Notes: generated from the sequence alone by a model not told the origin. A stretch of 64,000 bases of DNA from Patescibacteria group bacterium (GCA_041737355.1 JBGSRW010000010.1:3935-67934), one strand, 5' to 3'; positions 1 through 46,500 are shown, counted from the first letter of the stretch. Made by a program: numbers and translations.

Positions 1-1
1 A

Positions 2-256
2 CTCGGAACGCCGAGAATCGAGTATATGAGATATTGGCGGTATCAGAATAATCAGAACGACGAGCTTTTTGTTCCAGCCATAGTTTTCCCGGTAATAGAA
101 AAAACTCCGGCCGACGATTATTCAAACAAAGAAGCGGTCGTCATCCCTCTCGTCAAGGAAATTTTGGACAGCGTTACGGCTGAACAAAATATTGTTCCAA
201 CCCCGATGCCGCTTGATATAGTTGAACCGTCTCCGGCGGAAGAGGTGAAAAAGTAA
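2..256 (+). CDS. C-terminal fragment of unknown protein (gene begins upstream of window)
   Basis: Frame is open from base 2 to the stop at 254-256. A stem-loop plus T-rich tract follows at 280-306. Confidence 0.5.
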   Translation, partial: LGTPRIEYMRYWRYQNNQNDELFVPAIVFPVIEKTPADDYSNKEAVVIPLVKEILDSVTAEQNIVPTPMPLDIVEPSPAEEVKK

Positions 257-279
257 AAATAAAAAAATAAAATAAGCGT

Positions 280-306
280 CTCGCCCTTTGGGCGGGCGCT
301 TTTATA
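280..306 (+). terminator. Rho-independent-like terminator
   Basis: 7-bp GC stem ctcgccc/gggcggg with a ttt loop, followed by a T-rich tract. Confidence 0.45.
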
Positions 307-434
307 TATGATAAAATAGAAGAAGGGAAGTTTTCGGCGGAAAATTTAATCAAAACATAATTTATAATGATAAAATGAAGCCATAAGGAGACAAGTGAGA
401 GTCTCCCGGCTCTTTTACAAGGAGGAAAAAAAAT

Positions 435-968
435 ATGCAAAACAGAAAACTATCCGTTCTTTTCGTTTTCGTCTTCGCGGCTCTTGCCCTCTCCGGATGG
501 AGTTGCGGCAACGGCTACGGCGTCAATAACAACGAACCGGAGACAAGTGGCGGTCCCCAGACCTATCAAAACAGCGAGTGGGGAGTAAGCTTCCAGTATC
601 CGGAAGGTTGGCAATACCGCGAGTACCGGGAAACAATCGAGGGTGCCGAAATTGTCACCTTGGCTTTTTCCGACACCTCGCTTCCCGAAACTTTGCCGCC
701 CGAACCGGTTTTCCCGATAATGGTTTCGCGCGATGTGAGAACAATCAGCGAAGCTGCCGTGGCGCACGCGGACGCCATCTCCATTAGCGACACAACCTTG
801 GGAGGAAGATCAGCTAAAATAGTTACGCGCTATTCTGAAATCTTGGAACAAAATTACAGCATATACCTTATAGCCCTGGGCAGCGGATCAATAAAATTTC
901 TGCCAATGGATACAAGGTATGTCTCCGTTGCTGAAAGCATGATCAACACCCTCACCGAGAGAGAGTAG
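435..968 (+). CDS. Secreted/lipoprotein, hypothetical
   Basis: RBS aaggagg 8 nt upstream of the ATG. N-terminal signal peptide with a Cys shortly after (LSGWSC). Confidence 0.7.
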   Translation: MQNRKLSVLFVFVFAALALSGWSCGNGYGVNNNEPETSGGPQTYQNSEWGVSFQYPEGWQYREYRETIEGAEIVTLAFSDTSLPETLPPEPVFPIMVSRDVRTISEAAVAHADAISISDTTLGGRSAKIVTRYSEILEQNYSIYLIALGSGSIKFLPMDTRYVSVAESMINTLTERE

Positions 969-978
969 GAGATAGGCC

Positions 979-2271
979 GTGAAAAAAATATTGGTGAGCG
1001 CGTTGACTATTGTACTCTTTGCATTAATCCCTCGCCCGGTTTGGGCAGAGGGATTTCTGTACTTGCCGATTACCCGGACGCCGGTTATTACTGCCGGTTT
1101 CTGTGGCTACCGGACTGCCTCAGGCGCCTGTCACGGCGGAATTGACTACGACGTTCGCGATGATGGAGACGGAATTTACGCCGCCGCCGCAGGTGTCGTG
1201 GAAGCGGTAAGTGATGGTTGGTCAAATACGCGGCGAGATAATATTGTCAGCTACGGCAACTCGGTCCGTATCCGCCATCCAAACGGCTATCTGACTATCT
1301 ACGGCCATCTGAAAAGCGGCACTCTGCTTGTCCGGGTCGGCGACTATGTCCGGATCGGGTCGGCGCTCGGAGTCGGCGACAATTCGGGCTGGTCAACCGG
1401 ATCGCATCTTCATTTTGAAGTGCGCGATCCGGGAAACCACAAGGTTGACCCGTATGGAGAGAGCCCGAGTTATCCGAACTGCGGGGCGAATCCGCTTTGG
1501 GTAAATTGTCCGCCGCTTTCGCCCGACGACGTTGACCAGGACCGCGACGGATACAACCTGCTCGTTGACTGCGACGACCTTAACAGGAACATCTATCCCG
1601 GAGCGACGGAACTTTGCAACGGCGCTGACGAAAACTGCGATACGATTCCCGACGACCGCTGGGCGGCCCTTGGTATGGCCTGCGCCGTAACGCCCCTGCC
1701 TGGCTGCGAGCGGAGCGGAATCTACGAATGCAGTTCCGACGAAACAACAATCGTCTGCAACGCCGATCCGACAGTCGGTGCCGAACGGTGCAACGGAATC
1801 GACGACGACTGCGACGGGGAAACCGACGAGGATTGGCGGACCGGACTCGCGGTTGATCTCGGACGGCCCTGCGATGTCGGCGAAGGCGAATGCTTCCGGA
1901 CCGGCGTCTGGGAGTGCGAACCGGGCGGACGGGGAGTCGTCTGCGGCGCGGAATATGTTTACGGTACCGAAGAAATCTGCGACGGGCTTGATAACGACTG
2001 CGACGGCGACACGGACAATTTCTGTCTTTGCCGGACGGCAAGCCCGTACCCGAATTGCCTCTGCCGCGATTGCGACGCTTCCTGCGGTTACGGGAAAGTT
2101 TGCCTGATTGTCGGGTTTAATACCGACGGAAGCGTTATTCATACCTGCGCGTCAAACGGCTGCTACGGCTGTTCCGGTGCCTGCATTAACGATTATTGTC
2201 TTGATTCGCCGATGGATTATTGTATTGATTCAGCCTATTCTTTTTGCGGCAGCCATTGTCCCTCCTGGTAA
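979..2271 (+). CDS. M23 family metallopeptidase with C-terminal Cys/Asp-rich repeats (MopE-like CNGxDDDCDGxxDE)
   Basis: GTG start after a GGAG RBS. Signal peptide. M23/LytM motifs HGGIDY and GHLHFE. Three or more repeats of C-N-G-x-D-(D/E)-(D/N)-C-D-G-x-x-D. Confidence 0.8.
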   Translation: MKKILVSALTIVLFALIPRPVWAEGFLYLPITRTPVITAGFCGYRTASGACHGGIDYDVRDDGDGIYAAAAGVVEAVSDGWSNTRRDNIVSYGNSVRIRHPNGYLTIYGHLKSGTLLVRVGDYVRIGSALGVGDNSGWSTGSHLHFEVRDPGNHKVDPYGESPSYPNCGANPLWVNCPPLSPDDVDQDRDGYNLLVDCDDLNRNIYPGATELCNGADENCDTIPDDRWAALGMACAVTPLPGCERSGIYECSSDETTIVCNADPTVGAERCNGIDDDCDGETDEDWRTGLAVDLGRPCDVGEGECFRTGVWECEPGGRGVVCGAEYVYGTEEICDGLDNDCDGDTDNFCLCRTASPYPNCLCRDCDASCGYGKVCLIVGFNTDGSVIHTCASNGCYGCSGACINDYCLDSPMDYCIDSAYSFCGSHCPSW

Positions 2272-2413
2272 AATCAAAAAAAACGCCAGCTCGCGTTACC
2301 GGGCTGGTTTTATTTTGTCATTTTTATGTTTTTAACGGGGTTGACAAAAACCGATTATAATGATAGTTTATTTATATTATCGACAAGTTGAAAAAGAAGA
2401 AGGGAGGGGGAGA

Positions 2414-2638
2414 ATGAGAACCGAAAAGATCGCCTGTCCGCACTGCCACGGGCTCAAGAATTGCGCCTGTGAAGTTTGCGGATCCGGTCCCAAGGGGACA
2501 AAGAAGCTCGGGACTTGCCGGGTTTGTAATGGTCGGGGCTACGCGGGGATCGAAGTTTTTCCGCCGGAGGCGAAGAGCGATCCCGCGCGCGGCGAAAAGG
2601 ACAGGGGGGAGGCTTTGGAGGGAAGGGAGAAAAGATGA
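2414..2638 (+). CDS. Small DnaJ-CR-type zinc-finger protein (CxxCxGxK, CxCxxCGxG, CxxCxGxG)
   Basis: ATG 2414 behind a GGGAGGGGGAG RBS. Eight Cys arranged as in the DnaJ cysteine-rich domain. GC-rich. Confidence 0.7.
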   Translation: MRTEKIACPHCHGLKNCACEVCGSGPKGTKKLGTCRVCNGRGYAGIEVFPPEAKSDPARGEKDRGEALEGREKR

Positions 2639-2835
2639 GAGTGACAAAAGACGTCGGGGGCGTGGGGTTCTGCAACCATTGCAAGGGACGCAAGACCTGC
2701 AGCTGCGACATCTGCGTCCAGCAGGGCGGAACCTGCGGGCAATGCGGCGGCCTCGGACACTTCGTCAAGGCCAGTCCGCCTCTCCCGCCGGAGTTCAGGG
2801 TCAGGACCGAGACCGCCGGTAAGAACAAGAAATAG
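2635..2835 (+). CDS. Small DnaJ-CR-type zinc-finger protein, paralog 2
   Basis: ATGA start/stop overlap with the upstream gene. RBS gggaaggga. Same Cys pattern (CNHCKGRK, CSCDIC, CGQCGGLG). Confidence 0.7.
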   Translation: MRVTKDVGGVGFCNHCKGRKTCSCDICVQQGGTCGQCGGLGHFVKASPPLPPEFRVRTETAGKNKK

Positions 2836-2884
2836 CCGGCTTCCGCGTCTTCGGGTTCCAAAGGGGAGAGAAAGGACAGGGAAA

Positions 2885-3097
2885 TTGGCGAAGAAATGGA
2901 TTGCCTGCCCGCACTGTCATGGCGGGAAGATCTGCGAGTGCGAAGGATGTCGGAGTGAATCTCCGAAAGGATTTTTGCCCGGTCTTTGCCGCGGCTGTTC
3001 TGGGAGCGGAGGCCACTGGGCGATTGTTCCCGAGGGGAATGACCGGTTCTCGCGCGTCGCGGAAGTCGATGACGACGGAGGCAACAAGGCGAGCTAG
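2885..3097 (+). CDS. Small DnaJ-CR-type zinc-finger protein, paralog 3
   Basis: TTG start with a GGGGAGAGAAAGGA RBS. CPHCHGGK, CECEGC, CRGCSGSG. Confidence 0.6.
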   Translation: MAKKWIACPHCHGGKICECEGCRSESPKGFLPGLCRGCSGSGGHWAIVPEGNDRFSRVAEVDDDGGNKAS

Positions 3098-3119
3098 GCA
3101 GCCGGGCCGGAGGTAAGAA

Positions 3120-3335
3120 ATGAAAGGCAGCTGGGTTCGCTGCAGACATTGTTCCGGTAACAGAAGTTGCGACTGCCATGAGTGCCGTTCGCCCCGCGGC
3201 AAGGGTTTCGAGGCGGGCATCTGCCGGTACTGCGAAGGTCTGGGCGGCGACTGGAAGGGTAACGGTCCGCAAAGTCCGCGGCTCATCGCGCCGCGCCGTC
3301 CGGCCAGACATCTGCCCGATCGTCCGAAAAGGTAG
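3120..3335 (+). CDS. Small DnaJ-CR-type zinc-finger protein, paralog 4
   Basis: RBS ggaggtaag. CRHCSGNR, CDCHEC, CRYCEGLGG. Confidence 0.7.
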   Translation: MKGSWVRCRHCSGNRSCDCHECRSPRGKGFEAGICRYCEGLGGDWKGNGPQSPRLIAPRRPARHLPDRPKR

Positions 3336-3381
3336 GAGGCCGAAAAAAGTAGGAGGGAAGTAAAACAACTTGTCGTGTCGT

Positions 3382-3413
3382 GCGCCTCGGGCAATGCTCG
3401 CGGCGCTTTTTTA
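3382..3413 (+). terminator. Imperfect GC hairpin plus T6 terminator after the zinc-finger array
   Basis: gcgcc...ggcgc stem followed by ttttttatt. Confidence 0.45.
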
Positions 3414-3623
3414 TTAACTGGCCCGAAATTTTGAAGCCGCAGGCGAACAAAATTCCGTTGGCAGTTAATAACTCCGCTCCAATTTTGCTCCAATAAAAAG
3501 TTTTGCAAGAATAATAAAAAAAGTTGTTCATGTTTCGCGAAGCGCGGGCGCGAATAGCGCGTCCCGTTACGGGCGCAGCGCTTCGCCGGGAATCTAATCG
3601 CAAAATTGAGGCCGGGGTTTTTC

Positions 3624-3652
3624 TTGACAATATAAGATTTTTATATTATAAA
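3624..3652 (+). promoter_or_regulatory. Sigma70-like promoter (TTGACA, 17-nt spacer, TATAAA)
   Basis: Consensus -35 hexamer, 17-nt spacer and a near-consensus -10, about 30 nt upstream of the RBS of the 3685 gene. Confidence 0.6.
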
Positions 3653-3684
3653 GAACTGAAACAGCAGGGAAGGGAGTAAGAAAG

Positions 3685-3942
3685 ATGAGGCCGATCCGAA
3701 TTGTCACGCTCGCCCAGCCCAAAGGGGTAAGGTACCGGGAGGACGAAGAAATCAGGAGCATTGTCGGTATTCACGCCGGGTGCGGCGGGGAATTTTGCCT
3801 GGTCTACTTTTCAAGCGGCTGGTCCGAGCTCGTCTGCCGGTGCGGTATCCGCTTCAAGGTTCCGGCAAGGCGGATGACCTACCGCGAGCTCAGGTTCTTC
3901 TTCGAGGGGTCAAAACCGCTGCGGCGAAGGAGGAAGCGATGA
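3685..3942 (+). CDS. Small Cys-containing hypothetical protein (GCGGEF...GW.L.C.CG motif)
   Basis: Strong RBS gggaagggag. Paralogous to the next ORF. Confidence 0.65.
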   Translation: MRPIRIVTLAQPKGVRYREDEEIRSIVGIHAGCGGEFCLVYFSSGWSELVCRCGIRFKVPARRMTYRELRFFFEGSKPLRRRRKR

Positions 3943-4205
3943 AATCGATTCCTCTCACCAATACCGGCGAGATGCTCATTCCCTCCGAAGAATCGGAGTT
4001 GACCGACGACAGCGAACTCCGGGACGGCATGGGTCTCGGGCGGCACGACTGGAAGGGCTGCGCCGGCGGCGAGTTTCAGATCTACGAGGTGATCAGCGGC
4101 TGGACCCTGACCTGCATGGGTTGTGGCATGCAGCGGCAGATTCCGCGCGAGGTCAAAACCGTCGGAGAGCTCCGCGCTTACGCGGAAGAATTTTTCAAGG
4201 AGTGA
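3939..4205 (+). CDS. Small Cys-containing hypothetical protein, paralog of the 3685 gene
   Basis: ATGA overlap with the upstream stop. RBS ggaggaag. Shares a GC(A/G)GGEF...SGW.L.C.GCG...ELR core. The ORF track begins this frame earlier at 3780. Confidence 0.6.
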   Translation: MKSIPLTNTGEMLIPSEESELTDDSELRDGMGLGRHDWKGCAGGEFQIYEVISGWTLTCMGCGMQRQIPREVKTVGELRAYAEEFFKE

Positions 4206-4219
4206 GTCGAGGAGGCCTC

Positions 4220-4251
4220 GAGACTGTCGAAGCGGCAGTCTCTATTTTTTT
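4220..4251 (+). terminator. Rho-independent terminator
   Basis: gagactg...cagtctc stem followed by T7. Confidence 0.7.
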
Positions 4252-4252
4252 A

Positions 4253-4294
4253 CAAAAAATAAAAAAAATAAAACCGCGAAAAGTTTTTCGCGGT
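4253..4294 (-). terminator. Rho-independent terminator for the convergent minus-strand genes
   Basis: Perfect 10-bp stem accgcgaaaa/ttttcgcggt. An A-run on the + strand gives a T-run on the - strand. Confidence 0.7.
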
Positions 4295-4318
4295 CGTGAG
4301 TGATCTCCTTTTCCGGAT

Positions 4319-4645
4319 TCAGCCTTTCTTCTCCGGGAGCCGCTGTCCACAGGCCGGGCAGAATCCCGCCGCCCGCGCTTTTGCGGCCCAGGCCAGCTTC
4401 TCCGCCTCTTCTTCTGCCAGGCTCCCGCCGGGGTGGTGCAGGTTGTCGTTGTTGCAGAACGGGCAGTTAGTCAGGTATTGTCCGTAGCCGACCTCGCCGC
4501 CGTGTTGGGTTTCCCGTTTCTCGAACCCGCAATGTGGACAGATGAAGCGGTAGTCGTCGAAGATCTGCCGAGTGAGGCTCGTGTCTGCCTCGCGATAATA
4601 GCATTCGCCCATCTCGCCGCATTCCGGACACTTTGCCTTTGCCAT
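4319..4645 (-). CDS. Zinc-ribbon protein with four CxxC pairs (CPECG, CPHCG, CPFC, CPACG)
   Basis: Internal Met start with a strong RBS GGAGGAAAGGTAAGATG. The annotated ORF is longer but lacks an RBS. Confidence 0.65.
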   Translation of the reverse strand: MAKAKCPECGEMGECYYREADTSLTRQIFDDYRFICPHCGFEKRETQHGGEVGYGQYLTNCPFCNNDNLHHPGGSLAEEEAEKLAWAAKARAAGFCPACGQRLPEKKG

Positions 4646-4646
4646 C

Positions 4647-4967
4647 TTACCTTTCCTCCTCGCCCTTTCCTTTGGGCGGGAAATATCCCCGGCCGCCGCC
4701 GTTCGGCAGAAGAAAAGAAATCGTCCCGTCATCGGCCGTTTCGACCGGCGTGTTCTTGCCGAGCATGAAAGTCTGGTTCGGAAGATTCTTCCATGGCCCC
4801 CGCTCGGCTTCGAATTGCCGGGCGTAATTGACGAGCAGAAAGTGGACAAGAATTCCTTCGGTCCAGACCCGCTTTACGGTTCCCCGCCAGGCGTATCCGG
4901 TCGTGTCGTGGATTTTCAGAGCCCGGCCGCAGAGTCCTCTCCGGCCGAGAAGTTCTTCGAGTGTCAT
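4647..4967 (-). CDS. Hypothetical protein
   Basis: RBS GAAAGGAGG upstream. Stop lies 1 nt from the start of the downstream gene. Confidence 0.55.
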   Translation of the reverse strand: MTLEELLGRRGLCGRALKIHDTTGYAWRGTVKRVWTEGILVHFLLVNYARQFEAERGPWKNLPNQTFMLGKNTPVETADDGTISFLLPNGGGRGYFPPKGKGEEER

Positions 4968-5052
4968 TCCCGGCCTCCTTTCAAACCTCGGTTAAGTTTA
5001 ACTTTTTAAGTCAATTTGTCAAGGTACCAAGTTTCTGCGATAATATGGGAAG

Positions 5053-5850
5053 ATGGAAAACATCATTGAAGTAAAAAATTTGGTAAAAAAATACAACGGT
5101 CTCGCCGCGGTGGACGGGATTTCTTTTGGCGTGGCGCCCGGAGAAATTTTTGCTTTTTTGGGGCCAAACGGCGCCGGGAAAACCACAACCATCAAGATGC
5201 TCACAACTCTCCTGCATCCGAGTTCCGGCGAAATGCTGATGAACGGTTTTGACCCGATGAAGGAAGAAGACAAGGTCAGGCAATCGTTCGGAATTGTTTT
5301 TCAGGATCCGAGCCTGGACGACGAACTCACGGCTTACGAGAACATGTATTTTCACGCCGTCTTGTATAAAACTCCGAAGGCCGGGCGGGCCGAACGGATA
5401 AAACAGCTTTTGGAATTCGTCGAACTCTTTGACCGAAGAGGCGATCTGGTCAAAAAGTTTTCCGGCGGGATGAAACGGCGTCTGGAAATCGCCCGCGGCC
5501 TGTTGCACCATCCGAAAATTTTGTTTTTGGACGAACCGACGCTTGGCCTCGATCCCCAGACAAGCAACGCCATCTGGCAGTACGTAAAAAATATGCGGGA
5601 GACGGAGGGGACAACCGTTTTTTTCACGACCCATTACATGGCCGAAGCCGAACGGGTCGCCGACCGCGTTGCGATTATTGATCATGGAAAAATCGTCGCC
5701 CAAGGAACCGTTCCCGAACTTTTGGCTTCCACCAAAACCGATAATCTGGAAGACGCTTTTCTTTCGCTCACAGGAAAAAAGTTAAGGGACAGCGAAGCGA
5801 CAGGAGCCGATAATTTGCGGGAAGGCCGGGCCATGTGGCACCGGAGATAA
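5053..5850 (+). CDS. ABC transporter ATP-binding protein
   Basis: Walker A GPNGAGKTT, ABC signature LSGGMKRR, Walker B ILFLDEPT. Confidence 0.9.
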   Translation: MENIIEVKNLVKKYNGLAAVDGISFGVAPGEIFAFLGPNGAGKTTTIKMLTTLLHPSSGEMLMNGFDPMKEEDKVRQSFGIVFQDPSLDDELTAYENMYFHAVLYKTPKAGRAERIKQLLEFVELFDRRGDLVKKFSGGMKRRLEIARGLLHHPKILFLDEPTLGLDPQTSNAIWQYVKNMRETEGTTVFFTTHYMAEAERVADRVAIIDHGKIVAQGTVPELLASTKTDNLEDAFLSLTGKKLRDSEATGADNLREGRAMWHRR

Positions 5851-5857
5851 AAATTTT

Positions 5858-6604
5858 ATGTCGACTATCTATATATTGTGGTTAAGACAACTTAAAAGAT
5901 ATTTGCGTTCGCGCTCAAGAATTATCGGGTCGCTCGGCCAGCCGCTTTTGTTTTTGGTGGCGCTCGGTTTCGGTTTCGGTCCGATTTACGAACGGGCCGG
6001 AGCGGGAAATTATCTGCAGTTTTTGGTTCCGGGAGTCGTCGCCATGAGCGTTCTTTTTACGGCGATGTTTTCGGGAATCGAAGTTATCTGGGACCGCCAG
6101 TTCGGATTTTTGAAAGAAACTCTGGTCGCCCCGGTTTCGCGCCTCCGGATTATGATCGGCCGGACCTTGGGCGGAGCAACGGTCGCGACTCTTCAGGGAG
6201 TGATCGTTTTTTTTCTTTCGTTTTTTGTCGGTTTCCGTCCGGCCTCATGGGCCTACGTTCCCCTGGCGTTTCTTTTTATGTTTTTGCTCGCGGCAATCTT
6301 TACCGCTCTCGGCACGGCTATCGCCTCAAAGATGTCGGACATGCACGGTTTCCAGCTCATCATGAATTTTCTGATCATGCCGATTTTTTTCCTTTCCGGG
6401 GCGCTTTTTCCTTTGGATGGCCTGCCTAAAATTATTGCTTCGGTCACATCGGCCAACCCGCTTTCCTACGGAGTCGATGCCCTGCGGGGGACGCTCAGCC
6501 TGCAATCCCATTTCGGTATCGGGACGGACGCGATTGTTCTTTCCGCCGCCGCAGTCGTTCTTTTAACCCTGGGCGGATATTTGTTTTCAAAAATTGAAGT
6601 GTAA
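5858..6604 (+). CDS. ABC-2 type transporter permease
   Basis: Six predicted TM helices. Directly follows the ATPase gene. Confidence 0.8.
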   Translation: MSTIYILWLRQLKRYLRSRSRIIGSLGQPLLFLVALGFGFGPIYERAGAGNYLQFLVPGVVAMSVLFTAMFSGIEVIWDRQFGFLKETLVAPVSRLRIMIGRTLGGATVATLQGVIVFFLSFFVGFRPASWAYVPLAFLFMFLLAAIFTALGTAIASKMSDMHGFQLIMNFLIMPIFFLSGALFPLDGLPKIIASVTSANPLSYGVDALRGTLSLQSHFGIGTDAIVLSAAAVVLLTLGGYLFSKIEV

Positions 6605-6614
6605 AATAAAAGTT

Positions 6615-7634
6615 ATGAAAAAAATATTCTTAATTTTTGCCGCAATTTTTTTTATAATTTTTTCGTGTATCGGTTTTCTGCCGCGGGTCTCCTTTGCCGC
6701 GGAAACGAGGCCGATTTTTTTTCCGACCGATCCGTCCGTAACTTTTACCGACAGTTTTGGCGATGCCCGTTACGGCCATTCGCACGAGGGGATTGATCTC
6801 ATGGGCCAAAAAATGATGCCGCTCTACTCGGCAATCGACGGGCAAGTCAGCTACATCGTTGATCCCGAAGCCGATTACGGCTATTCGGTTGTTTTGCGGG
6901 ACAGCGACGGCTACTCCTATCATTATTTGCATGTTAACAACGATACGCCGGGGACCGACGACGGTTTGGGCGGGACGGCCAATGCCTACGCCCCGGGGAT
7001 TGTCCACGGCGCAACGGTTAGCAAGGGCCAGCTTATCGGCTGGATGGGGGACAGCGGCAATGCCGAAAATGCCGGGCCTCATTTGCATTTTGAAATCCGC
7101 CTGCCCGACGGTACGGCGATCGATCCATACTTAAGTCTTGTGGCCGCCCGCTATCCCGGCAGTTACAGCCTTGCCGAGGCTCTTGCCGCAAGTCCCGACA
7201 TTAATGCCGACAAAAGTCTTTTAACCGGCCCCTCGCCGGCGCCCTGCGTTTCCGGCTCGAGACTGAAGACTTCGACCTCGACCGCGGTTTATTACTGCGG
7301 AGCCGACGGCCGGCGCTATCTTTTCCCGAACAACAAAACATATTTTACCTGGTATGCAAACTTTACCGGAGTTCTTACCATTACCTCCGCCCAACTTTCG
7401 GCGATTCCTTTCGGAGGCAACGTCACTTTTCGTCCGGGCGTGAAAATGGTAAAAATGCAGACCGATCCGAAAGTTTACGCCGTGGGGCAGGGCGGAGTTC
7501 TGCGCTGGGTAAAGTCCGATGAGACCGCTGTCGCCCTTTACGGAGCCGACTGGGCCAAGAAAATTGACGATGTTCCCGAAGCCTTTTTTACCAATTATGT
7601 CATCGGCGAGCCGGTTCTTTCGGTTCGTTTATAA
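6615..7634 (+). CDS. M23 family metallopeptidase (second paralog)
   Basis: Signal/TM N-terminus. HSHEGIDL and GPHLHFE motifs. ATG 6615 preferred over the TTG at 6594. Confidence 0.8.
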   Translation: MKKIFLIFAAIFFIIFSCIGFLPRVSFAAETRPIFFPTDPSVTFTDSFGDARYGHSHEGIDLMGQKMMPLYSAIDGQVSYIVDPEADYGYSVVLRDSDGYSYHYLHVNNDTPGTDDGLGGTANAYAPGIVHGATVSKGQLIGWMGDSGNAENAGPHLHFEIRLPDGTAIDPYLSLVAARYPGSYSLAEALAASPDINADKSLLTGPSPAPCVSGSRLKTSTSTAVYYCGADGRRYLFPNNKTYFTWYANFTGVLTITSAQLSAIPFGGNVTFRPGVKMVKMQTDPKVYAVGQGGVLRWVKSDETAVALYGADWAKKIDDVPEAFFTNYVIGEPVLSVRL

Positions 7635-7649
7635 ATCAAAAATTAGCCC

Positions 7650-7678
7650 TTGACACTTTCCCGTTTTTCCGCTATAAT
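7650..7678 (+). promoter_or_regulatory. Consensus sigma70 promoter (TTGACA, 17 nt, TATAAT)
   Basis: Perfect hexamers with 17-nt spacing. Confidence 0.65.
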
Positions 7679-7754
7679 AAAAGCACAATTGAAGAATCGT
7701 TTTTCGTGAGAGACTCTTCCTTTGGCAAGAGTTTTTTGTTCAAAAACCAACATT

Positions 7755-7976
7755 ATGGACATGGAAATTACAAAATATACATTTATCAGCGACTGGCGCG
7801 ACGCGGCCAAGGCCCAGGGGTACTTTGTCCCTTTTCAGCTCTGCAACGGGCTCGCGATCACCATGAAAAAACACAGCCTTAGCTTTGTCGAGGCTTTTGA
7901 ATACCTGACAAAACGCAATAAGATATTTTTGGACAATCTCGAGTTTTCCTACGACGGAAGCGGAGACGAGTTATAA
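7755..7976 (+). CDS. Hypothetical small protein
   Basis: ORF downstream of the promoter. The 5' leader contains a hairpin plus T-run. Confidence 0.5.
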   Translation: MDMEITKYTFISDWRDAAKAQGYFVPFQLCNGLAITMKKHSLSFVEAFEYLTKRNKIFLDNLEFSYDGSGDEL

Positions 7977-7991
7977 TTTTTAAAGAAGTTT

Positions 7992-8027
7992 GGCGCGGGG
8001 TATAATCCCCGCGCCTTTTTGTTTTTG
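7992..8027 (+). terminator. Rho-independent terminator (palindrome gcgcggggTATAATccccgcgc plus T-run)
   Basis: 8-bp perfect GC stem with T5 and T5. Confidence 0.8.
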
Positions 8028-8137
8028 CTTTTAAATTAACGCCAAATATGCTAAAATTAGGCTGTAATCAATAAATACGCGGCAATGGTCGTAACCGCGT
8101 TTAGCCTAAAAACGGATAATTATTAAATTAAAAATAT

Positions 8138-8497
8138 ATGGATTCATCATACAGCTCGCGCTCTACCAAGCCGTTATACCGCAGCACCCAGATTGTCTGG
8201 TATATCGTCGGCCTCCTTGAAGTGCTTTTGGCGTTCAGGTTCGTTTTAAAACTTCTTGCCGCCAATCCCGCGGCCGGTTTTACCAGCTTTATTTACGCTG
8301 TCAGTTATATTTTTGCCGCGCCGTTCCTTGCCGTTTTCCGCGTCACAAAAGTTGAAGGAAGTATTTTCGAATGGACGACCCTTTTGGCCATGGCCGTTTA
8401 CGCGCTCGTTGCCTGGGGCGTTGTCAGGCTTTTGTTCATGAGCAAGACGGTCTCCACTCCGGAAGCCGCGGAAAAATTGAACGAAGAAAACAAGTAA
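8138..8497 (+). CDS. YggT-like small membrane protein
   Basis: Two or three TM helices. Resembles the YggT/Ycf19 fold. Confidence 0.5.
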   Translation: MDSSYSSRSTKPLYRSTQIVWYIVGLLEVLLAFRFVLKLLAANPAAGFTSFIYAVSYIFAAPFLAVFRVTKVEGSIFEWTTLLAMAVYALVAWGVVRLLFMSKTVSTPEAAEKLNEENK

Positions 8498-8525
8498 TTT
8501 TTTCAAAAGTTAAAAGACAAAATTT

Positions 8526-8774
8526 ATGGGAATTATTCTTTGGATTATTTTCGGGGGACTGGTCGGCTGGGTCGCCTCCATGATTATGAAGACCAATGCG
8601 CAGCAGGGCATTATCCTGAATGTCATCGTCGGCATTGTCGGCGCGGTATTGGGCGGCTGGATCATGAGCTTATTCGGTAAAAGCGGGGTGGGTACTTTTA
8701 ATTTGTACAGTTTCCTCGTGGCGCTGCTCGGAGCAATTGTCCTTGTCGCGATTGTGAAGGCCTTGAGGCGTTAA
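8526..8774 (+). CDS. GlsB/YeaQ/YmgE family stress-response membrane protein
   Basis: Gly-rich TM repeats GGLVGW...GIVGAVLGGWI. Confidence 0.7.
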   Translation: MGIILWIIFGGLVGWVASMIMKTNAQQGIILNVIVGIVGAVLGGWIMSLFGKSGVGTFNLYSFLVALLGAIVLVAIVKALRR

Positions 8775-8794
8775 AGATATAGAATAAATTAGAG

Positions 8795-8824
8795 GGCGCG
8801 GGGTATAATCCCCGCGCTTTTTGG
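8795..8824 (+). terminator. Rho-independent terminator, identical palindrome to the one at 7992
   Basis: ggcgcggggtataatccccgcgc followed by tttttgg. Confidence 0.8.
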
Positions 8825-8890
8825 TAAAAAAAAGGAGAGGGGCGCGGGGCGCTCCCTCTCGGGGGTTTGATGTTGTCCGGATGGGGCGGG

Positions 8891-9214
8891 CTAGTAGCGG
8901 ACGGTGCACTTCCGGCAGTCAGGAAGGACGGCCTTGGACATCGTGTCCATGATCGCCTCGACCTGGTGCCGGCGTGCCTCTTTGCGCGCCTGGAAGGCGT
9001 TCACGAGCTGGACCTTGAGGCCGGTCTGCTCCTCGTCCGGCACGTCCTGGAGTACGAGCATCGCGTCGAGGTGTCCGGCGCAGAAGGCGAGATCGACCGG
9101 CATCGGGCCGAGCGTGGCGACTTCCTTGCCGGACTTGCGGAGAATGACGTTGCATTCGCAGCCGCAGCCGCAGAAAAGAACCTCGATCGTGTAGGTCAAA
9201 AGTTCGATTCCCAT
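8891..9214 (-). CDS. Cys-rich hypothetical protein (CGCGCEC ... C...C..C)
   Basis: Internal Met with a GGAGGAG RBS. GC-rich. The upstream part of the annotated ORF has no RBS. Confidence 0.55.
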   Translation of the reverse strand: MGIELLTYTIEVLFCGCGCECNVILRKSGKEVATLGPMPVDLAFCAGHLDAMLVLQDVPDEEQTGLKVQLVNAFQARKEARRHQVEAIMDTMSKAVLPDCRKCTVRY

Positions 9215-9326
9215 CTTTTTTCTCCTCCTTCTTTTTCCGCCGGGGCTTTTCGCCCGGGCGGCTAATCCTAATTTCAGGATACCCCTTAATATATCATTTT
9301 TTCGGTCAATTGTCAACCCCCGCGCT

Positions 9327-9355
9327 TTGACTTTAAGCCAGGTTTTTGGGATAAT
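9327..9355 (+). promoter_or_regulatory. Sigma70-like promoter (TTGACT, 17 nt, GATAAT) for the defense-island operon
   Basis: Hexamers with 17-nt spacing, 36 nt upstream of the 9391 ATG. Confidence 0.55.
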
Positions 9356-9390
9356 TGAGGAAAGAATTCTATTAATTTATTTCATAAAAT

Positions 9391-12300
9391 ATGAATGGTC
9401 AATTCGTAAAAGAATATATAGTTACGGTTTCCGAAAAATACAAAACCGGCCAAGCCAAAGAGCACGCTTACCGTCCGGCGCTAGAAAAGTTGTTTCAAGA
9501 TATTACTGGTCTTGAGGTAATTAATGATCCAAAACAGAGCGAATATGGTGCGCCGGATTTTGTTTTTATAAAAGATAAACTCGCTTTGGCTTATGCGGAA
9601 GCTAAAGATGTCAAAGTGTCTCTTGACGAAATTGAAAAAAGCGAACAGGTCGTCAGATATTTTGGTTACTCGAACTTGATTTTAACCAATTATCTTGAAT
9701 TCAGATTTTTTCGCAATGGAGAAAAATATGGTGAACCAATAAAAATTGCCGAAATTATAGATAACAAAATAATACCGGCCGAAAGCAGCACTCATTTGCA
9801 GGATGAAATTGCGGAATTTATCGCTCAAGCTAAAGAACCGATAAAATCAGGCGCTTTGTTGGCAAAAGTTATGGCTGGAAAAGCCCGTCGTATTCGTGAT
9901 AATATCAGTGTTTTTTTGGCAAAGGATGGCCCCGAAAATCAAAGTTTGATGGATATTTACAATGTTATAAGAAAAATGCTTCTCCCGGATTTGGATTATG
10001 AGCGATTTGCGGATATGTATGCGCAAACCGTTGTTTATGGTTTGTTTGTCGCTCGATATCATGATGAATCACCAGGGACATTTTCCCGACAGGAGGCGCG
10101 CGATTTGATGCCGGCGTCAAATCCGTTTTTACGTGAATTTTTTAACCACATCGCCGGTCCATCATACGATCCGCGCATAGAATTTATTGTGAAGGAACTT
10201 TGTGAAGAATTCGGGCATGCCGATGTGTCAGCCATTGTCCATAATTATTATAAAACTGAAAAAGATAATAATCGCGATCCGATAATTCATTTCTATGAAG
10301 ATTTTTTGAAGGAGTATGATCCTAAATCGCGCATGAAATTAGGTGTTTTCTATACGCCATTGCCGGTTGCCCGTTTCATTGTACGTTCAGTAGATGAAAT
10401 TTTAAAAAAAGATTTTAAGTTAGCCGGGCTGTCTGATTCTTCTGAAATCGAAATAAAAAAACAAATCCAAAATAATAAAGTTAAAGCGACCGAACGTGTC
10501 CATAAGGTGCAAATTTTGGATCCCGCGACCGGGACAGGAACATTTCTCAATGAAGTTATTTCACTTGTCCATGAATCATTCGTCGGGCAAGAAGGCAGAT
10601 GGCCAAGCTATGTTCGAGAAGATTTTTTACCGCGCTTGCATGGTTTTGAATTGATGATGGCCTCTTATGTTATTGCGCATTTAAAACTTTCGTCGTCTTT
10701 CAAGGAAACAGGCGTGGATTTGGATGGTACATGGTTAGGCGTCTATCTCACAAATTCTTTGGAAAAAGCAAAAAAAGAAGACGATACTCTATTTGCCGGA
10801 TTGGGATTTGATAAGGCAATTACAGCTGAATCAAAGGCTGCTGGAAAGATAAAGACGGAGTTGCCAATTATGGTAGTGCTAGGGAACCCGCCTTATAGCG
10901 GAGTTTCGTCGAATGAAACGGAATATGCCAATAGCCTCGTGGAAAAATACAAAGTTGAACCAGGCGGAAAGCAAAAATTGCAAGAACGTAAACACTGGCT
11001 GAATGACGATTATGTAAAATTTATCGCCTTGGCCGAGAACATGGTTGAAAAAAACGGCGAAGGCATCGTGGGTTACATTACAAACCATGGCTATCTTGAC
11101 AATCAGACCTTCCGCGGCATGCGCTGGCATCTCATGGATACTTTTGATTCGATATATGTGTTCGATCTCCATGGAAATGCGAAGAAGCACGAAGTTTCGC
11201 CGGACGGCAGCAAGGATGAAAATGTATTTGATATCCAGCAAGGCGTGGCGATTATAATTGCCGTTAAGACAGGAGTGAAAAAGGCCGGAAACTTGGCAAA
11301 AGTGTATCGGGCTGATCTGTGGGGAAAGAGAGAGCATAAATTTGAACGGCTTAACGAACTTTCGATTGAAAACACAAAATGGCTATCGCTCAAACCTCGA
11401 ACGCCCTATTTATTTTTTGCGCCGGAAGGCTCGATGAAACTTGAGACTGAATATCAAATCGGATTTAGTATAAACGAACTTTTTGTTGAAAATAGCACCG
11501 GTATTGTAACTATGGGGGACGGTTTTATTATTGGCGAAGATAAAGAATCGCTTGAAAACAGAGTCGTGAATTTTTTACGCGATGATGATTCAGAAAATAT
11601 ACTGAAAGAAAACTTTAACCTAGGTAAAAATTACGCAAAGTGGATTATCGGCAACAAAAAAGATATCGTAGTTGATCATGATAAAATTACTACATTTTCT
11701 TATCGTCCGTTTGATGATAGATATACCTATTTTGATAACAAGCTTGTCTGGCGGCCGCGTACAAAGATTATGCGAAATTTTGTTAAAAAAAATAACATAG
11801 GGTTGATTGCAACAAGGCTTAATCGTCAGTTAAGTAGCGGTTATTTTTTCTTAACAAGTAAAATTGTAGATTTTCACATATTGGATAGCGCTGGAGATTC
11901 AACATCTGCTTTTCCACTTTATCTTTATTTTGAAGATGGCACAAAAAGTTCTAATCTTAAAAAAGAAATGGTATCAGAAATTGAAAAAATCGTCGGGGAT
12001 GTTGTACCCGAAAATATTTTCGATTATATCTATGCGGTTTTGCATTCGCCGAGTTATCGAGAAAAATACAAAGAGTTTTTGAAAATAGATTTTCCGCGCG
12101 TGCCATATCCGAAAAATGAGAAACAATTTTTCGCGTTAGCCAAGTTGGGCGAGGAGTTGCGGCATTTGCACTTGCTGGAAAGTCCAAAAGTTGAAAAATT
12201 TATCACTACTTATCCCGAGGCGGGAGAGAATTTGGTGGAGAAAGTCGTCTACAAAGACGGCAAAGTTTACATCAACGCTTCGCAATATTTTGGCGGCGTG

Positions 12301-12477
12301 CCGGAAGTCGCGTGGGATTTTTACATCGGCGGTTATCAGCCGGCGCAGAAATGGCTGAAAGATCGCAAAGGCCGCAAGCTCACGAATGCCGATATTGAAC
12401 ATTATCAGAAAATCATCGTGGCACTCGTTGAGACGGATAGAATAATGAAGGAAATCGACAAAAATATATCCATCTAA
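9391..12477 (+). CDS. Type IIG/IIL restriction-modification enzyme (MmeI-like): N-terminal PD-ExK nuclease fused to a gamma-class N6-adenine DNA methyltransferase and a target-recognition domain
   Basis: PD...EAK motif (APDFVFIK...AEAKD) near the N-terminus. Methyltransferase motif I ILDPATGTGTFL. Motif IV VVLGNPPYSG. 1028 aa. Low GC. Confidence 0.8.
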   Translation: MNGQFVKEYIVTVSEKYKTGQAKEHAYRPALEKLFQDITGLEVINDPKQSEYGAPDFVFIKDKLALAYAEAKDVKVSLDEIEKSEQVVRYFGYSNLILTNYLEFRFFRNGEKYGEPIKIAEIIDNKIIPAESSTHLQDEIAEFIAQAKEPIKSGALLAKVMAGKARRIRDNISVFLAKDGPENQSLMDIYNVIRKMLLPDLDYERFADMYAQTVVYGLFVARYHDESPGTFSRQEARDLMPASNPFLREFFNHIAGPSYDPRIEFIVKELCEEFGHADVSAIVHNYYKTEKDNNRDPIIHFYEDFLKEYDPKSRMKLGVFYTPLPVARFIVRSVDEILKKDFKLAGLSDSSEIEIKKQIQNNKVKATERVHKVQILDPATGTGTFLNEVISLVHESFVGQEGRWPSYVREDFLPRLHGFELMMASYVIAHLKLSSSFKETGVDLDGTWLGVYLTNSLEKAKKEDDTLFAGLGFDKAITAESKAAGKIKTELPIMVVLGNPPYSGVSSNETEYANSLVEKYKVEPGGKQKLQERKHWLNDDYVKFIALAENMVEKNGEGIVGYITNHGYLDNQTFRGMRWHLMDTFDSIYVFDLHGNAKKHEVSPDGSKDENVFDIQQGVAIIIAVKTGVKKAGNLAKVYRADLWGKREHKFERLNELSIENTKWLSLKPRTPYLFFAPEGSMKLETEYQIGFSINELFVENSTGIVTMGDGFIIGEDKESLENRVVNFLRDDDSENILKENFNLGKNYAKWIIGNKKDIVVDHDKITTFSYRPFDDRYTYFDNKLVWRPRTKIMRNFVKKNNIGLIATRLNRQLSSGYFFLTSKIVDFHILDSAGDSTSAFPLYLYFEDGTKSSNLKKEMVSEIEKIVGDVVPENIFDYIYAVLHSPSYREKYKEFLKIDFPRVPYPKNEKQFFALAKLGEELRHLHLLESPKVEKFITTYPEAGENLVEKVVYKDGKVYINASQYFGGVPEVAWDFYIGGYQPAQKWLKDRKGRKLTNADIEHYQKIIVALVETDRIMKEIDKNISI

Positions 12478-12478
12478 T

Positions 12479-12895
12479 ATGTACGAAGAAAATGGCAACG
12501 TAATAAATATAAAAGCAGCTAGGTTGAGCGCTGATCCCAGGATAGTCGGATTATTTACAAAGGATAAAAGATTGATAGAAAAAGTTATTTATTGTGTTTT
12601 CTATCCAAAAAAAGAGTTGCATGTTTATCGGGAGAGTTCGGAAGAAAAAGGTGAATATAGTTGCGAGATTTATGATTTTGAAGATGTGGTTCCAAAATTT
12701 AGGGAAAAATTAGGTGAAAAATTTGTCAGAGAAGATGGTGTCGAGAGCCTAGAACAAAATCAGCTCATCAAAAAATTTTTTATTGCGGGCATTAAATTAT
12801 TCAGTTATGAAAATATTACAGAAGAGGATAGAAAAATAATTGAGGAAATTTTTATTTCCGCAAAAAGAAAAGTTGATGAGAGAATTAAAGGGTAA
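12479..12895 (+). CDS. Hypothetical protein (138 aa) in the defense operon
   Basis: Starts 2 nt after the stop of the type IIG enzyme gene. No recognizable motif. Confidence 0.5.
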   Translation: MYEENGNVINIKAARLSADPRIVGLFTKDKRLIEKVIYCVFYPKKELHVYRESSEEKGEYSCEIYDFEDVVPKFREKLGEKFVREDGVESLEQNQLIKKFFIAGIKLFSYENITEEDRKIIEEIFISAKRKVDERIKG

Positions 12896-12919
12896 TTTAA
12901 TTTTTTTTGAAATAAATTA

Positions 12920-16100: not shown

Positions 16101-16109
16101 TTTTTTTAA

Positions 16110-18635: not shown

Positions 18636-18642
18636 TTTATAT

Positions 18643-19173
18643 TTGATAAATATTTTAAACGATCGGATTTTTAGTATGGATGTTAATAAAGAAAGAAAAG
18701 TTTGCCGGGATTATTTGGTGGCGCGTAAGAAATTTTTAAAATTTGCTAATAAAAGTGAATTATTGCGGGGCAATGATAATATTATTGGCAGCCGAATTGG
18801 GGAATTTATTGCCTGGGAATTTTTGGATAAACAAAAAAGGAAGCCGAAGATGAATGAGCGAGCTAATGTTGAAGGTCATGATATGGTTTGTAAGGATGGC
18901 AAAAAAATTTCCGTTAAACTAATTAGTCCGGAGAACAAAACGGGAAGAACGACAAGGTTGGGTAAAAATTGGGATGAATTTTTATTAATTATTCTCGGCG
19001 ATAATTATAAAGTAGCTAAAATTGGTCATATCACCCGAAGCCAATTTAATAAAGATAAAAAAATAAGGAGTGCTAACCCGTATACAACTCGATCGATGTT
19101 AGGGGAAAAGGGTTTGTTTGTAAGATCTAGGGGGCGTGTTTATAAAAAGGAAGAAGTTAGTTGGTTAATATAG
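18643..19173 (+). CDS. Hypothetical protein (176 aa), last gene of the defense operon
   Basis: TTG start at 18643 with an alternative ATG at 18676. Basic protein. Weak D...VK pattern. Confidence 0.45.
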   Translation: MINILNDRIFSMDVNKERKVCRDYLVARKKFLKFANKSELLRGNDNIIGSRIGEFIAWEFLDKQKRKPKMNERANVEGHDMVCKDGKKISVKLISPENKTGRTTRLGKNWDEFLLIILGDNYKVAKIGHITRSQFNKDKKIRSANPYTTRSMLGEKGLFVRSRGRVYKKEEVSWLI

Positions 19174-36662: not shown

Positions 36663-36739
36663 GGGCGGCTAGCTCAGTTGGTTAGAGCGTTACATTGACA
36701 TTGTAAAGGTCACAGGTTCGACTCCTGTGCCGCCCACCA
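36663..36739 (+). tRNA. tRNA-Val (GAC)
   Basis: Cloverleaf with 7-bp acceptor gggcggc/gccgccc. Anticodon loop ttGACat. CCA encoded. Confidence 0.85.
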
Positions 36740-36758
36740 TGAAAATTAGGCAATTTTT

Positions 36759-36784
36759 AAACCGCCGGAAGGCGGTTTTTTTAT
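36759..36784 (+). terminator. Rho-independent terminator after the tRNA
   Basis: ccgcc ggaa ggcgg followed by T7. Confidence 0.8.
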
Positions 36785-36897
36785 TTACATTTTTTGGGGT
36801 TTGTGATAATTTTCCTTCTGGTTGCCTGAATTCGGGCAATAGGGGAAAAGGCCGCCCGGGCGAAAGCTTTGGCGGACCCAAGGAGGAGAGAAGACAG

Positions 36898-45195: not shown

Positions 45196-45304
45196 TATAA
45201 GCAATAGGGGGCGCACTGAAGTGCAATAAAATAAATTTATTTCACCTCAGTGTGCCTTTTGGTTGGCGCACGGTAAGAAAAATAGGGGAGAAACGGAGGA
45301 GGAG

Positions 45305-46408: not shown

Positions 46409-46500
46409 AAACAACCAAGTTAGATTTCGGGGGCAAACGCAACGTTTGCCCCTTCTTTTTTTTCTTGGTATAATTAGGTAATAAAATTTTAGGAGGAAAT

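Follow-up and report, generated by a model that had tools for sequence, protein, structure and literature searches.

Patescibacteria, or candidate phyla radiation (CPR) bacteria, have small genomes in which a large share of the genes has no assigned function. The described systems closest to the locus analyzed here are the classical zinc ribbons (eS27, eIF2-beta and the ATCase regulatory chain), the cysteine-rich (CR) domain of DnaJ with its stand-alone relatives of the BSD2/ZnJ2 type (PF00684; PMC5818400), and the C(P)XCG zinc-finger micro-proteins of the archaeon Haloferax, for which regulatory or adaptor roles have been proposed. In this work, we analyzed a 64,000-nucleotide (nt) stretch of a Patescibacteria group bacterium (GCA_041737355.1, JBGSRW010000010.1:3935-67934), hereafter the window, in which positions 2360-4967 hold eight small genes, g1 to g8. 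A preliminary description had presented this segment as a discrete 2.6-kb cassette, rich in guanine and cytosine (GC) and bounded by terminators, within a genome of otherwise moderate GC.

The best explanation overall, to which we give about an even chance, is a lineage-specific Patescibacteria neighborhood of GC-rich zinc micro-protein operons anchored on g8. According to this proposal, three operons would encode small cytoplasmic proteins of unannotated families (CR, GCGGEF and g7) plus a beta-rich partner, g8. Together with a fifth family, famE, the set would form a neighborhood specific to a Patescibacteria subclade, usually near a pair of genes for an extracytoplasmic function (ECF) sigma factor and an anti-sigma-like protein, and near envelope genes. 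The proteins, with no enzymatic activity of their own, would act as zinc-finger adaptors or regulators by binding to nucleic acids or to other proteins, and strains would come to differ through homologous replacement and whole-gene gain or loss, centered on the convergent g5-g6/g7 junction.

Eight small genes and their operon signals

All eight open reading frames (ORFs) are genuine genes. In a codon-aligned comparison, the rate of nonsynonymous substitution divided by that of synonymous substitution (dN/dS) was 0.07-0.33 for all eight, third-position differences were in excess, and the homologs contained no stops. The eight sense ORFs also retain frame, length and ligand residues in homologs at 56-99% identity. 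Their coordinates, lengths in amino acids (aa) and assignments are as follows:

2414-2638, plus strand: g1, 74 aa, predicted small zinc protein of CR type; dN/dS 0.14-0.18
2635-2835, plus strand: g2, 66 aa, CR type; start overlaps the g1 stop (ATGA 2635-2638); dN/dS 0.26-0.28; homolog P0010
2885-3097, plus strand: g3, 70 aa, CR type, TTG start; dN/dS 0.27-0.33
3120-3335, plus strand: g4, 71 aa, CR type; dN/dS 0.07
3685-3942, plus strand: g5, 85 aa, predicted H/C3 zinc ribbon of the GCGGEF family; dN/dS 0.20
3939-4205, plus strand: g6, 88 aa, GCGGEF family; start overlaps the g5 stop (ATGA 3939-3942); dN/dS 0.14-0.32
4319-4645, minus strand: g7, 108 aa, four CxxC knuckles; dN/dS 0.27
4647-4967, minus strand: g8, 106 aa, beta-rich; dN/dS 0.22-0.26

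The TTG start of g3 is backed by alignment with g4 and with the homolog in contig L001 (related contigs are numbered with the prefix L throughout). The antisense frames, in contrast, are artifacts: in ORFs such as one of 304 aa at 2454-3368 and another of 235 aa, substitutions are not concentrated at third positions, and these long frames are open in relatives because the sequence is stop-poor.

These results bear out much of the preliminary description. Its eight small Cys-containing genes are all coding, with conservation present in every one; the four CR-type genes (g1-g4) are paralogs by family alignment; the two GCGGEF paralogs do share an ATGA overlap, and a second one joins g1 and g2; and the long antisense ORFs, attributed to the GC bias, indeed lack a third-position excess. 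The proteins are small, as stated, although they span 66-108 aa and not the 70-110 aa given. Standard annotation does leave them unexplained. Searches of g1-g8 and famE against Pfam, NCBIfam, PHROGs and PADLOC returned nothing above threshold, the defense models of PADLOC-DB v2 gave no match at E <= 0.01, and no enzyme, toxin, defense or phage family was matched by the set in the library searches. Sequence searches of the PDB, with single sequences and with profiles, yielded only sub-significant matches (DnaJ 1EXK, E = 0.19; eS27, E = 0.27), and hhalign among the families gave probabilities of about 1% or lower, so that they are unrelated to one another.

As read from their signals, the genes are arranged in three predicted operons with sigma-70-type, constitutive promoters: g1-g4, g5-g6 and the convergent g8-g7. 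Each gene has an AGGAGG-type ribosome-binding site, and a perfect TTGACA -35 element, at a position conserved in related loci, precedes each transcription unit. The signals are:

2285-2308, plus strand: terminator of the M23 peptidase gene, at the left edge of the segment; fold -16.9 kcal/mol, z = -3.5
2341-2369, plus strand: g1-g4 promoter; -35 TTGACA at 2341-2346, 17-nt spacer, TGn-extended -10 TAGTTT at 2364-2369
3382-3412, plus strand: g1-g4 terminator, a hairpin with a T-run; -17.7 kcal/mol, then UUUUUU; kept in L004 and L005
3624-3652, plus strand: g5-g6 promoter; TTGACA, 17-nt spacer, TATAAA
4220-4252, plus strand: g5-g6 terminator; 10-bp stem, z = -4.2
4295-4272, minus strand: g8-g7 terminator; 10-bp stem, z = -3.7
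5022-4995, minus strand: g8-g7 promoter; TTGACA, 16-nt spacer, TAAACT; back to back with the promoter of an ATP-binding cassette (ABC) transporter

The layout of the g1-g4 promoter recurs upstream of CR genes in L004, L005, L086, L089 and L098, while the g8-g7 promoter is conserved in L003, L004, L088 and L096. The internal consensus promoter noted earlier at 3624 was confirmed and lies in the same position in L001, L004, L088 and L096; the bidirectional terminator pair placed at 4220-4294 was likewise found, at 4220-4242 on the plus strand and 4295-4272 on the minus strand. ECF-type promoters were considered for the operons and ruled out, as all carry the sigma-70-like TTGACA. A scan of 2200-9450 against Rfam detected no known RNA family.

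The Shine-Dalgarno sequence of the overlapping gene downstream (CGAAGGAGGAAGCGATGA) also encodes the basic or charged C-terminal tails of g5 (RRRRKR, 3922-3942) and g1 (EGREKR, 2620-2638). Translational coupling, and not protein function, thus constrains part of these tails.

Predicted zinc proteins and their partners

The CR-type proteins g1-g4 share 27-47% identity and the pattern C-x-H-C-x-G-x3-C-x-C-x2-C-x(6-12)-G-x-C-x2-C-x-G-x-G, in which C8, H10, C11, C17, C19, C22, C35 and C38 are invariant across the family; a variable C-terminal stretch of 20-30 residues follows the motif. Seven Cys and one His are enough for two metal sites, and the proteins are probably two-metal modules with variable tails. 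Their resemblance to DnaJ appears, from the alignments, to be local only. Against PF00684 (DnaJ_CXXCXGXG), g1 scored 14.5 bits (E = 0.045), below the gathering threshold of 32.7, and g2-g4 gave no match at E <= 1. The CR profile aligned by hhalign with the Cys-rich domain of E. coli DnaJ at 66% probability over 27 columns (motifs 1-2), and hmmsearch against 1EXK gave E = 0.19. Compared with anti-TRAP (B. subtilis RtpA; approximate query sequence), the profile reached 8.6% in hhalign, with no Pfam match.

The proteins g5 and g6 belong to an unnamed family of about 88 aa, predicted to be an H/C3 zinc ribbon that has a strand at its N-terminus and a helix at its C-terminus. Searched exhaustively with HMMER, 1.84 billion representatives yielded 54 GCGGEF clusters, nearly all of them full-length proteins of 84-124 aa. 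Seven longer matches are tandem duplications, N-terminal fusions or unrelated repeat proteins, and the domain fusions of GCGGEF members carry no known domains. Across an alignment of 36 members, H36, C59 and C62 never vary and C41 is near-invariant, within the signature M-x-P-I-x-L-T-x2-G-E ... G-x-H-x(2-7)-C-x-G ... C-x2-C-x-L-R-x2-I-P ... T-Y-G-x-L-R. The AlphaFold2 model of g6, with a predicted local distance difference test score (pLDDT) of 95.2, has five strands and a C-terminal helix. A Foldseek search with this model against the PDB and BFVD returned no significant neighbor and just partial zinc-ribbon cores (ATCase regulatory chain, eIF2-beta); the N-terminal strand and C-terminal helix have no counterpart there, and so the full fold is left without a neighbor in either database.

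The protein g7 contains nine Cys and four knuckles (CPECG, CPHCG, CPFCN and CPACG), a pattern that identifies it as a predicted double zinc ribbon; Pfam and NCBIfam gave sub-threshold zinc-ribbon matches alone. Set against the C(P)XCG class (PMC11241148), which is defined by motif and is not a homologous family, g7 has three CPxCG motifs plus CPFCN at a size of 108 aa. The related string CPHCHG, not an exact CPxCG, occurs in g1 and g3, and CPxCG is absent from g2 and g4-g6.

The most conserved member of the set is g8, with homologs at 58-92% identity on 15 contigs. Its AlphaFold2 model (pLDDT 69) is beta-rich and gave no fold match. A catalytic Cys or His in g8 was considered and rejected, as C13 and H42 are not retained in the g8 paralog of L088.

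The fifth unnamed family, famE, is represented at 8897-9214 on the minus strand by a protein of 105-106 aa (GC content at third codon positions, GC3, 0.76-0.86) with 77% identity to L088 3210-3530, and has paralogs in L086, L089 and L098. The famE promoter and 5' leader (9215-9365, minus strand) are 91-93% identical to L088 3058-3208, compared with just 77% for the proteins. Over 104 nt, the region also matches L098 at 77% identity. The leader folds into two hairpins (z = -2.4) and gave no Rfam match; it may be a conserved regulatory leader.

A conserved neighborhood with family-wide GC enrichment

The distribution of the set is restricted. Close homologs recovered by database searches amounted to a handful, all on short metagenome contigs (L001-L005), and these searches found none outside a few Patescibacteria-type contigs. 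Within the window, the g8, CR, GCGGEF, g7 and famE families have no further members. The ATPase of the neighboring ABC transporter is most similar (77% identity) to a protein from a metagenome-assembled genome (MAG) of Candidatus Falkowbacteria, and CPR-type MAGs dominate its matches. Neither tblastn nor hidden Markov models detected the cassette genes in 80 loci (1.3 Mb, CPR/DPANN-type) fetched through this ATPase, which is too promiscuous to be of value for synteny.

The genes nevertheless keep recurrent company. Downstream of g8 lies a g7 homolog in L004, L088, L089, L093 and L098, or a small membrane protein of two to three helices in L003, L088 and L096; on the other g8 contigs there is nothing. 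The same membrane-protein gene lies downstream of the GCGGEF genes in L001, whose sequenced part does not include g8. The gene g8 is convergent to CR genes in L086, L087, L089-L093, L095 and L098, and to GCGGEF genes in the window, L003, L004, L088 and L096. In seven contigs (L086, L089, L092, L093, L095, L097 and L098), it is divergent from an ECF sigma gene, recognized by both Pfam and NCBIfam, which is followed by a gene for a protein of about 530 aa with one transmembrane helix; by its architecture, this protein would be anti-sigma-like. One or two copies of famE occur in the same neighborhoods. The window itself begins in such a gene, and the ECF sigma gene probably lies just upstream of its start. 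Further features of the neighborhood are:

2-244, plus strand: 3' end of the gene for the membrane protein of about 530 aa; 48-65% identity by tblastn to L086 4242-5831 and L089 960-2588; transmembrane helix at residues 75-100
979-2271, plus strand: secreted M23 peptidase (PF01551, 2.5e-21) with three MopE-type repeats (PF11617, 8.8e-17)
3412-3623, no strand: strain-specific intergenic insert of 212 nt with a GC-rich palindrome at 3537-3586; 10 nt instead in L004
5053-6604: ABC-2 transporter operon (ATPase and permease)
6594-7634: second M23 peptidase gene

The envelope genes near the block comprise the M23 peptidases and LytR-family and lipoprotein-like proteins, and the flanking M23 peptidase and lipoprotein-like ORF are syntenic with L086. 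The M23 peptidase at 979-2271 has 34 Cys in all and a Cys-rich C-terminal tail, which is unusual for a secreted lytic peptidase. Distant, stand-alone GCGGEF genes lie beside rplU (L094) and beside dnaG (L099).

The composition of the segment is anomalous, as had been claimed, and GC across the window is not uniform: the mean is 46.0%, with patches from 31% to 63%. The segment 2360-4967 has 57.2% GC, short of the 60-65% previously assigned to it, although the eight genes alone reach 58-63%; the spacers between them have 35-46%. Among 2.6-kb windows of the 64 kb, the GC maximum is the one that starts at 2401, and just 0.2% of such windows reach 57%. GC3 of g1-g8 is 0.66-0.82, compared with 0.51 +/- 0.09 for 65 other ORFs in the window.

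The notion of a discrete, self-contained cassette did not hold. The GC-rich zone sets in at 979 (rising from about 1000), 1.4 kb upstream, within the M23 peptidase gene (57% GC), and position 2360 is therefore a gene boundary and not a compositional one. A terminator does mark the left edge, but at the right edge (4968-5052) lie divergent promoters, in a region shared with the ABC-2 transporter operon. No mobility genes are present within 1-9300, the closest tRNA lies at 36663, and no DNA repeats flank the block or link the paralogs, so that conversion between paralogs was likewise rejected. In at least five other contigs, too, the genes of these families have high GC and are interspersed with normal-GC genes, and the recurring unit is the g8-anchored neighborhood, which reaches past 2360-4967 to include famE and the ECF sigma/anti-sigma pair.

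Elevated GC is instead a trait of the gene families, probably heritable and not the scar of a recent insertion. GC and GC3 of the system genes and of the other genes on the same contig are:

Window: system genes 0.61 and 0.74; other genes 0.46 and 0.51
L086: system genes 0.54 and 0.58; other genes 0.43 and 0.41
L088: system genes 0.60 and 0.77; other genes 0.37 and 0.39
L089: system genes 0.56 and 0.64; other genes 0.42 and 0.39
L098: system genes 0.57 and 0.68; other genes 0.42 and 0.43

Mann-Whitney tests of system versus other genes gave p values of 1e-6 to 5e-3 over the five contigs. The ECF sigma and 530-aa protein genes, interleaved with system genes, have native composition, and even the stand-alone GCGGEF genes exceed their neighbors (0.43 versus 0.36 GC in L094; 0.50 versus 0.41 in L099).

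At the codon level, the synonymous shift of the system genes affects both pyrimidine-ending pairs (C over T) and purine-ending pairs (G over A), whereas the cold-shock gene of the window prefers C over T alone, as translational selection predicts. Translational selection as the sole cause of the high GC3 was thus ruled out. At codon positions 1 and 2, the amino-acid usage adds to the enrichment (Gly 12.7%, Arg 8.9%, Cys 6.8%). Polarized substitutions numbered 23-25 from weak (A or T) to strong (G or C) bases against 39 from strong to weak, and do not support ongoing GC-biased fixation. As the locus demonstrably recombines, a candidate cause of the enrichment is GC-biased conversion associated with recombination (Lassalle et al. 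2015, PMC4450053).

We also weighed a recent genomic island: a donor rich in GC, whether bacterium, plasmid or phage, would have supplied the 2.6-kb block, or all of 979-4967, and the import would not yet have ameliorated. The contrast of 57% with 46% GC, the high GC3, and the joint enrichment of C over T and G over A, which fits foreign composition rather than translational selection, would all follow, as would the slight excess of strong-to-weak changes expected from amelioration and the variable gene content of strains; a clearly foreign, low-GC defense island also lies 4 kb away. However, the block has neither an integrase or transposase gene nor a tRNA, and no direct or inverted repeats flank it. 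A viral origin found no support either: no homologs turned up when 50,697 phage records were searched by tblastn and IMG/VR was scanned for patterns, and none occur beyond the few Patescibacteria-type contigs. The families are GC-rich even in contigs whose g8 is just 60-66% identical, where normal-GC native genes separate them, and the flanks keep their synteny with L086. A contiguous insert that is absent from relatives with the same flanks was not seen; the families are rearranged and interleaved with native-composition genes, and what varies is sub-modules alone (g4, g5, and g7 versus the membrane protein). Because the GC trait is family-wide and the hallmarks are missing, a simple recent insertion is unlikely.

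Presence and absence do differ among relatives, for g4, g5, g6 and g7. Identity between the window and L004 is 92-99% over 1371-3411 and over 4821-4970, and drops to 70-88% over 3621-4820. L004 lacks g5, its promoter-proximal region and the 212-nt insert. The insert is found nowhere else in the window or among the fetched loci, and shuffled sequences fold as well as it does. Protein identity to L004 is 99% for g1, 98% for g2, 99% for g4 and 92% for g8, and falls to 73% for g7 and 56% for g6. In L005, g3 leads directly to the terminators, without g4-g6, and L001, L002 and L088 each have three tandem GCGGEF genes. The g5-g7 segment has been swapped between near-identical strains. For the divergent g6 and g7 alleles, synonymous divergence (dS) is 0.7-1.0 and dN/dS is about 0.3, which indicates old alleles exchanged by homologous recombination and not rapid positive selection.

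A bolder version of the g8-anchored reading, and one we consider doubtful, is that the set of CR, GCGGEF and famE genes, with g7 or the small membrane protein, is an undescribed, strain-variable intracellular system of Patescibacteria, made up almost wholly of zinc-knuckle micro-proteins. It would be coupled in function to the adjacent ECF pair for envelope signaling, for example as interchangeable modulators or as a self/non-self module, with GC kept high by selection at the DNA or RNA level and not by ancestry.

Somewhat less probable again is a role in strain-variable antagonism, immunity or defense, in which g6 and g7 (with g8) would be a polymorphic lock-and-key pair, such as a small toxin plus immunity protein or an anti-phage sensor, under balancing selection. 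The divergence peak over g5-g6-g7 within flanks that are 95-99% identical is what such a pair would produce, and the replacement of g7 by the small membrane protein (L001, L003, L088, L096), the variable copy number, the translationally coupled gene pairs and the restriction or defense genes that adjoin the locus in the window and in L088 are in keeping with it. The low dN/dS of g6 and g7 (0.27-0.32) at the dS given above, though, marks these alleles as old and under purifying selection; no member has a PADLOC match or a toxin, nuclease, ATPase or protease domain; and the distant GCGGEF members stand alone beside the housekeeping genes rplU and dnaG.

A low-GC island at 9391-19173 (31-40% GC) contains genes for a methylase/specificity protein that is Type ISP-like (9391-12477), a nuclease-like protein of the PLD family (14331-16100), a helicase (ResIII/Helicase_C; 16110-18635) and several proteins without a family match, a DISARM-like parts list; it looks like a horizontally acquired restriction or defense island. 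In L088, HsdM and a reverse transcriptase adjoin the famE genes: the reverse transcriptase (26-1522, minus strand; 497 aa, RVT_1, 29% GC) lies beside the Type I HsdM gene and the GC-rich famE, g8 and GCGGEF genes.

Besides famE, further GC-rich genes of the window lie at 36727-38247 and 45242-46540. The former encodes adenylosuccinate synthetase and is a GC outlier (36663-38247; 61% GC, GC3 0.71) directly 3' of tRNA-Val (36663-36739). Because the start listed for the ORF overlaps the tRNA, the real one probably lies some 180 nt farther downstream, and the gene may be a separate horizontal acquisition. The region 45242-46540 (60% GC) holds long ORFs on both strands, one of 432 aa (minus strand; GC at first codon positions, GC1, 0.75) that has no Pfam match and one of 381 aa (plus strand). 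At 62204-62512, just upstream of tRNA-Asp (62678-62756), there is another small outlier rich in GC, a 102-aa ORF with 64% GC, GC1 0.79 and no Pfam match.

Function and comparison with described systems

Metal binding by g1-g7 is predicted from their ligand patterns. If zinc-finger micro-proteins (PMC6562870, PMC11241148) and DnaJ-like zinc-finger proteins (PMC5818400) are taken as a guide, binding of proteins or nucleic acids is the most likely activity, and a cytoplasmic regulatory or adaptor role is most likely for the set. A functional link to the ECF sigma module is suggested by gene order.

Several points weigh against this g8-anchored reading. The comparison set consists almost entirely of short metagenome contigs from few lineages, and the window does not include the sigma gene. 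The promoters are sigma-70-like and not ECF-like, so that the link to the ECF sigma factor rests on adjacency. No known homolog ties these proteins to a function, and their role is one that we infer; the C(P)XCG micro-proteins of Haloferax are, moreover, sometimes metal-free (PMC11241148). The model of g8 is of moderate confidence. Finally, the substitution pattern shows no current gain of GC and weakly suggests decay, as would fit a GC-rich set acquired in the distant past and slowly losing its composition.

Two further explanations concern the peptidases and the transporter around the block. One is a metal-handling set, in which the small proteins would buffer zinc (or copper), or deliver it to the secreted M23 metallopeptidases, in the manner of metallothioneins or metallochaperones. 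Ligand density is high (in g1-g4, about 35 residues hold seven Cys and one His; g7 has nine Cys), two M23 zinc peptidases flank the block, one with MopE-type, putatively metal-binding repeats, and the strong promoters and ribosome-binding sites suggest abundance. We consider this improbable: the invariant, regularly spaced ligands and the CxxCxGxG geometry are those of structural zinc knuckles rather than of metallothionein clusters, the small proteins have no signal peptides although the peptidases are exported, the CR genes of L089 and L098 are not adjacent to an M23 gene, and there is no Znu/Zur-type regulator or transporter nearby, the adjacent transporter being of the ABC-2 type.

The other, more improbable still, is a locus for a bacteriocin or another ribosomally synthesized and post-translationally modified peptide, with g1-g4 as tandem precursors that are exported by the ABC-2 transporter alongside the M23 lysins. 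It draws on the tandem, paralogous, Cys-rich peptides of 66-74 aa with conserved N-termini and hypervariable C-termini, and on the ATPase and permease genes with M23 peptidases on both sides. The conserved part of these peptides is, however, the Cys/His pattern of a folded zinc module, with no leader-cleavage motif. No radical SAM, LanB/C/M, YcaO or peptidase-C39 domain was found in the window region or the related loci, and the transporter is absent from related loci that retain the CR genes.

That the ORFs are chance frames and no genes exist here is virtually excluded: long spurious antisense ORFs (304 and 235 aa) do arise from this GC-rich sequence, but the idea was already refuted by the codon comparison, and the frames, lengths and ligands kept in homologs, the ribosome-binding site of each ORF, the operons with promoters and terminators, and the 54 representative clusters of the GCGGEF family all speak against it.

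For the g8-anchored neighborhood, eight anonymous ORFs have become five definable protein families with ligand signatures, one high-confidence model and a recurrent gene order. As far as the searched libraries and the literature show, the families are unnamed, and the neighborhood and its persistent GC enrichment are undescribed. A gene-family set that stays 10-20 GC points above its host in several diverged genomes, despite native-composition genes in between, is an unusual evolutionary pattern, which a recent island, the customary reading of such a break, explains poorly. The case is thus well suited to testing for selection on GC, for biased gene conversion or for gene flow within a lineage. 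Should the proteins modulate the ECF sigma module or mediate strain recognition, they would represent a new micro-protein regulatory layer in episymbiotic bacteria.

The building blocks are of familiar kinds, zinc ribbons and DnaJ-like knuckles. As in classical zinc ribbons, g5 and g6 are predicted to carry two knuckles (G-x-H-x2-7-C and C-x2-C) on beta-hairpins, and their best, non-significant matches are eS27 (E = 0.27), 1K81 and chain B of ATCase; unlike these, they add the N-terminal M-x-P-I-x-L-T-x2-G-E strand and the C-terminal T-Y-G-x-L-R helix. With the DnaJ CR domain and its stand-alone relatives, g1-g4 share a final canonical CxxCxGxG knuckle, further CxxC-type knuckles and eight candidate ligands that would allow two metal sites. 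DnaJ, however, has four CxxCxGxG motifs, which form two Zn(Cys)4 centers, while g1-g4 have one in full (e.g., CRVCNGRG), together with CxHCxG and an invariant His and CxCxxC cluster that DnaJ lacks. They also have no J domain, each bears a variable tail of 20-30 aa, and their genes stand in tandem.

The Haloferax C(P)XCG proteins resemble the set in being very small, with about one or two pairs of zinc knuckles, many paralogs per genome and no enzymatic domain, and g7 has their motif in CPECG, CPHCG and CPACG. They differ in being archaeal, with no detectable sequence relationship to the proteins described here, which are clustered in operons within a conserved neighborhood, are compositionally distinct from the genome and, in g5 and g6, use one His and three Cys as candidate ligands. 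With horizontally acquired islands, finally, the locus shares local compositional deviation, presence/absence differences between strains and a defense island nearby. It differs from them in lacking mobility machinery and insertion-site hallmarks, and its deviation goes with the gene families from genome to genome and not with one contiguous insert.

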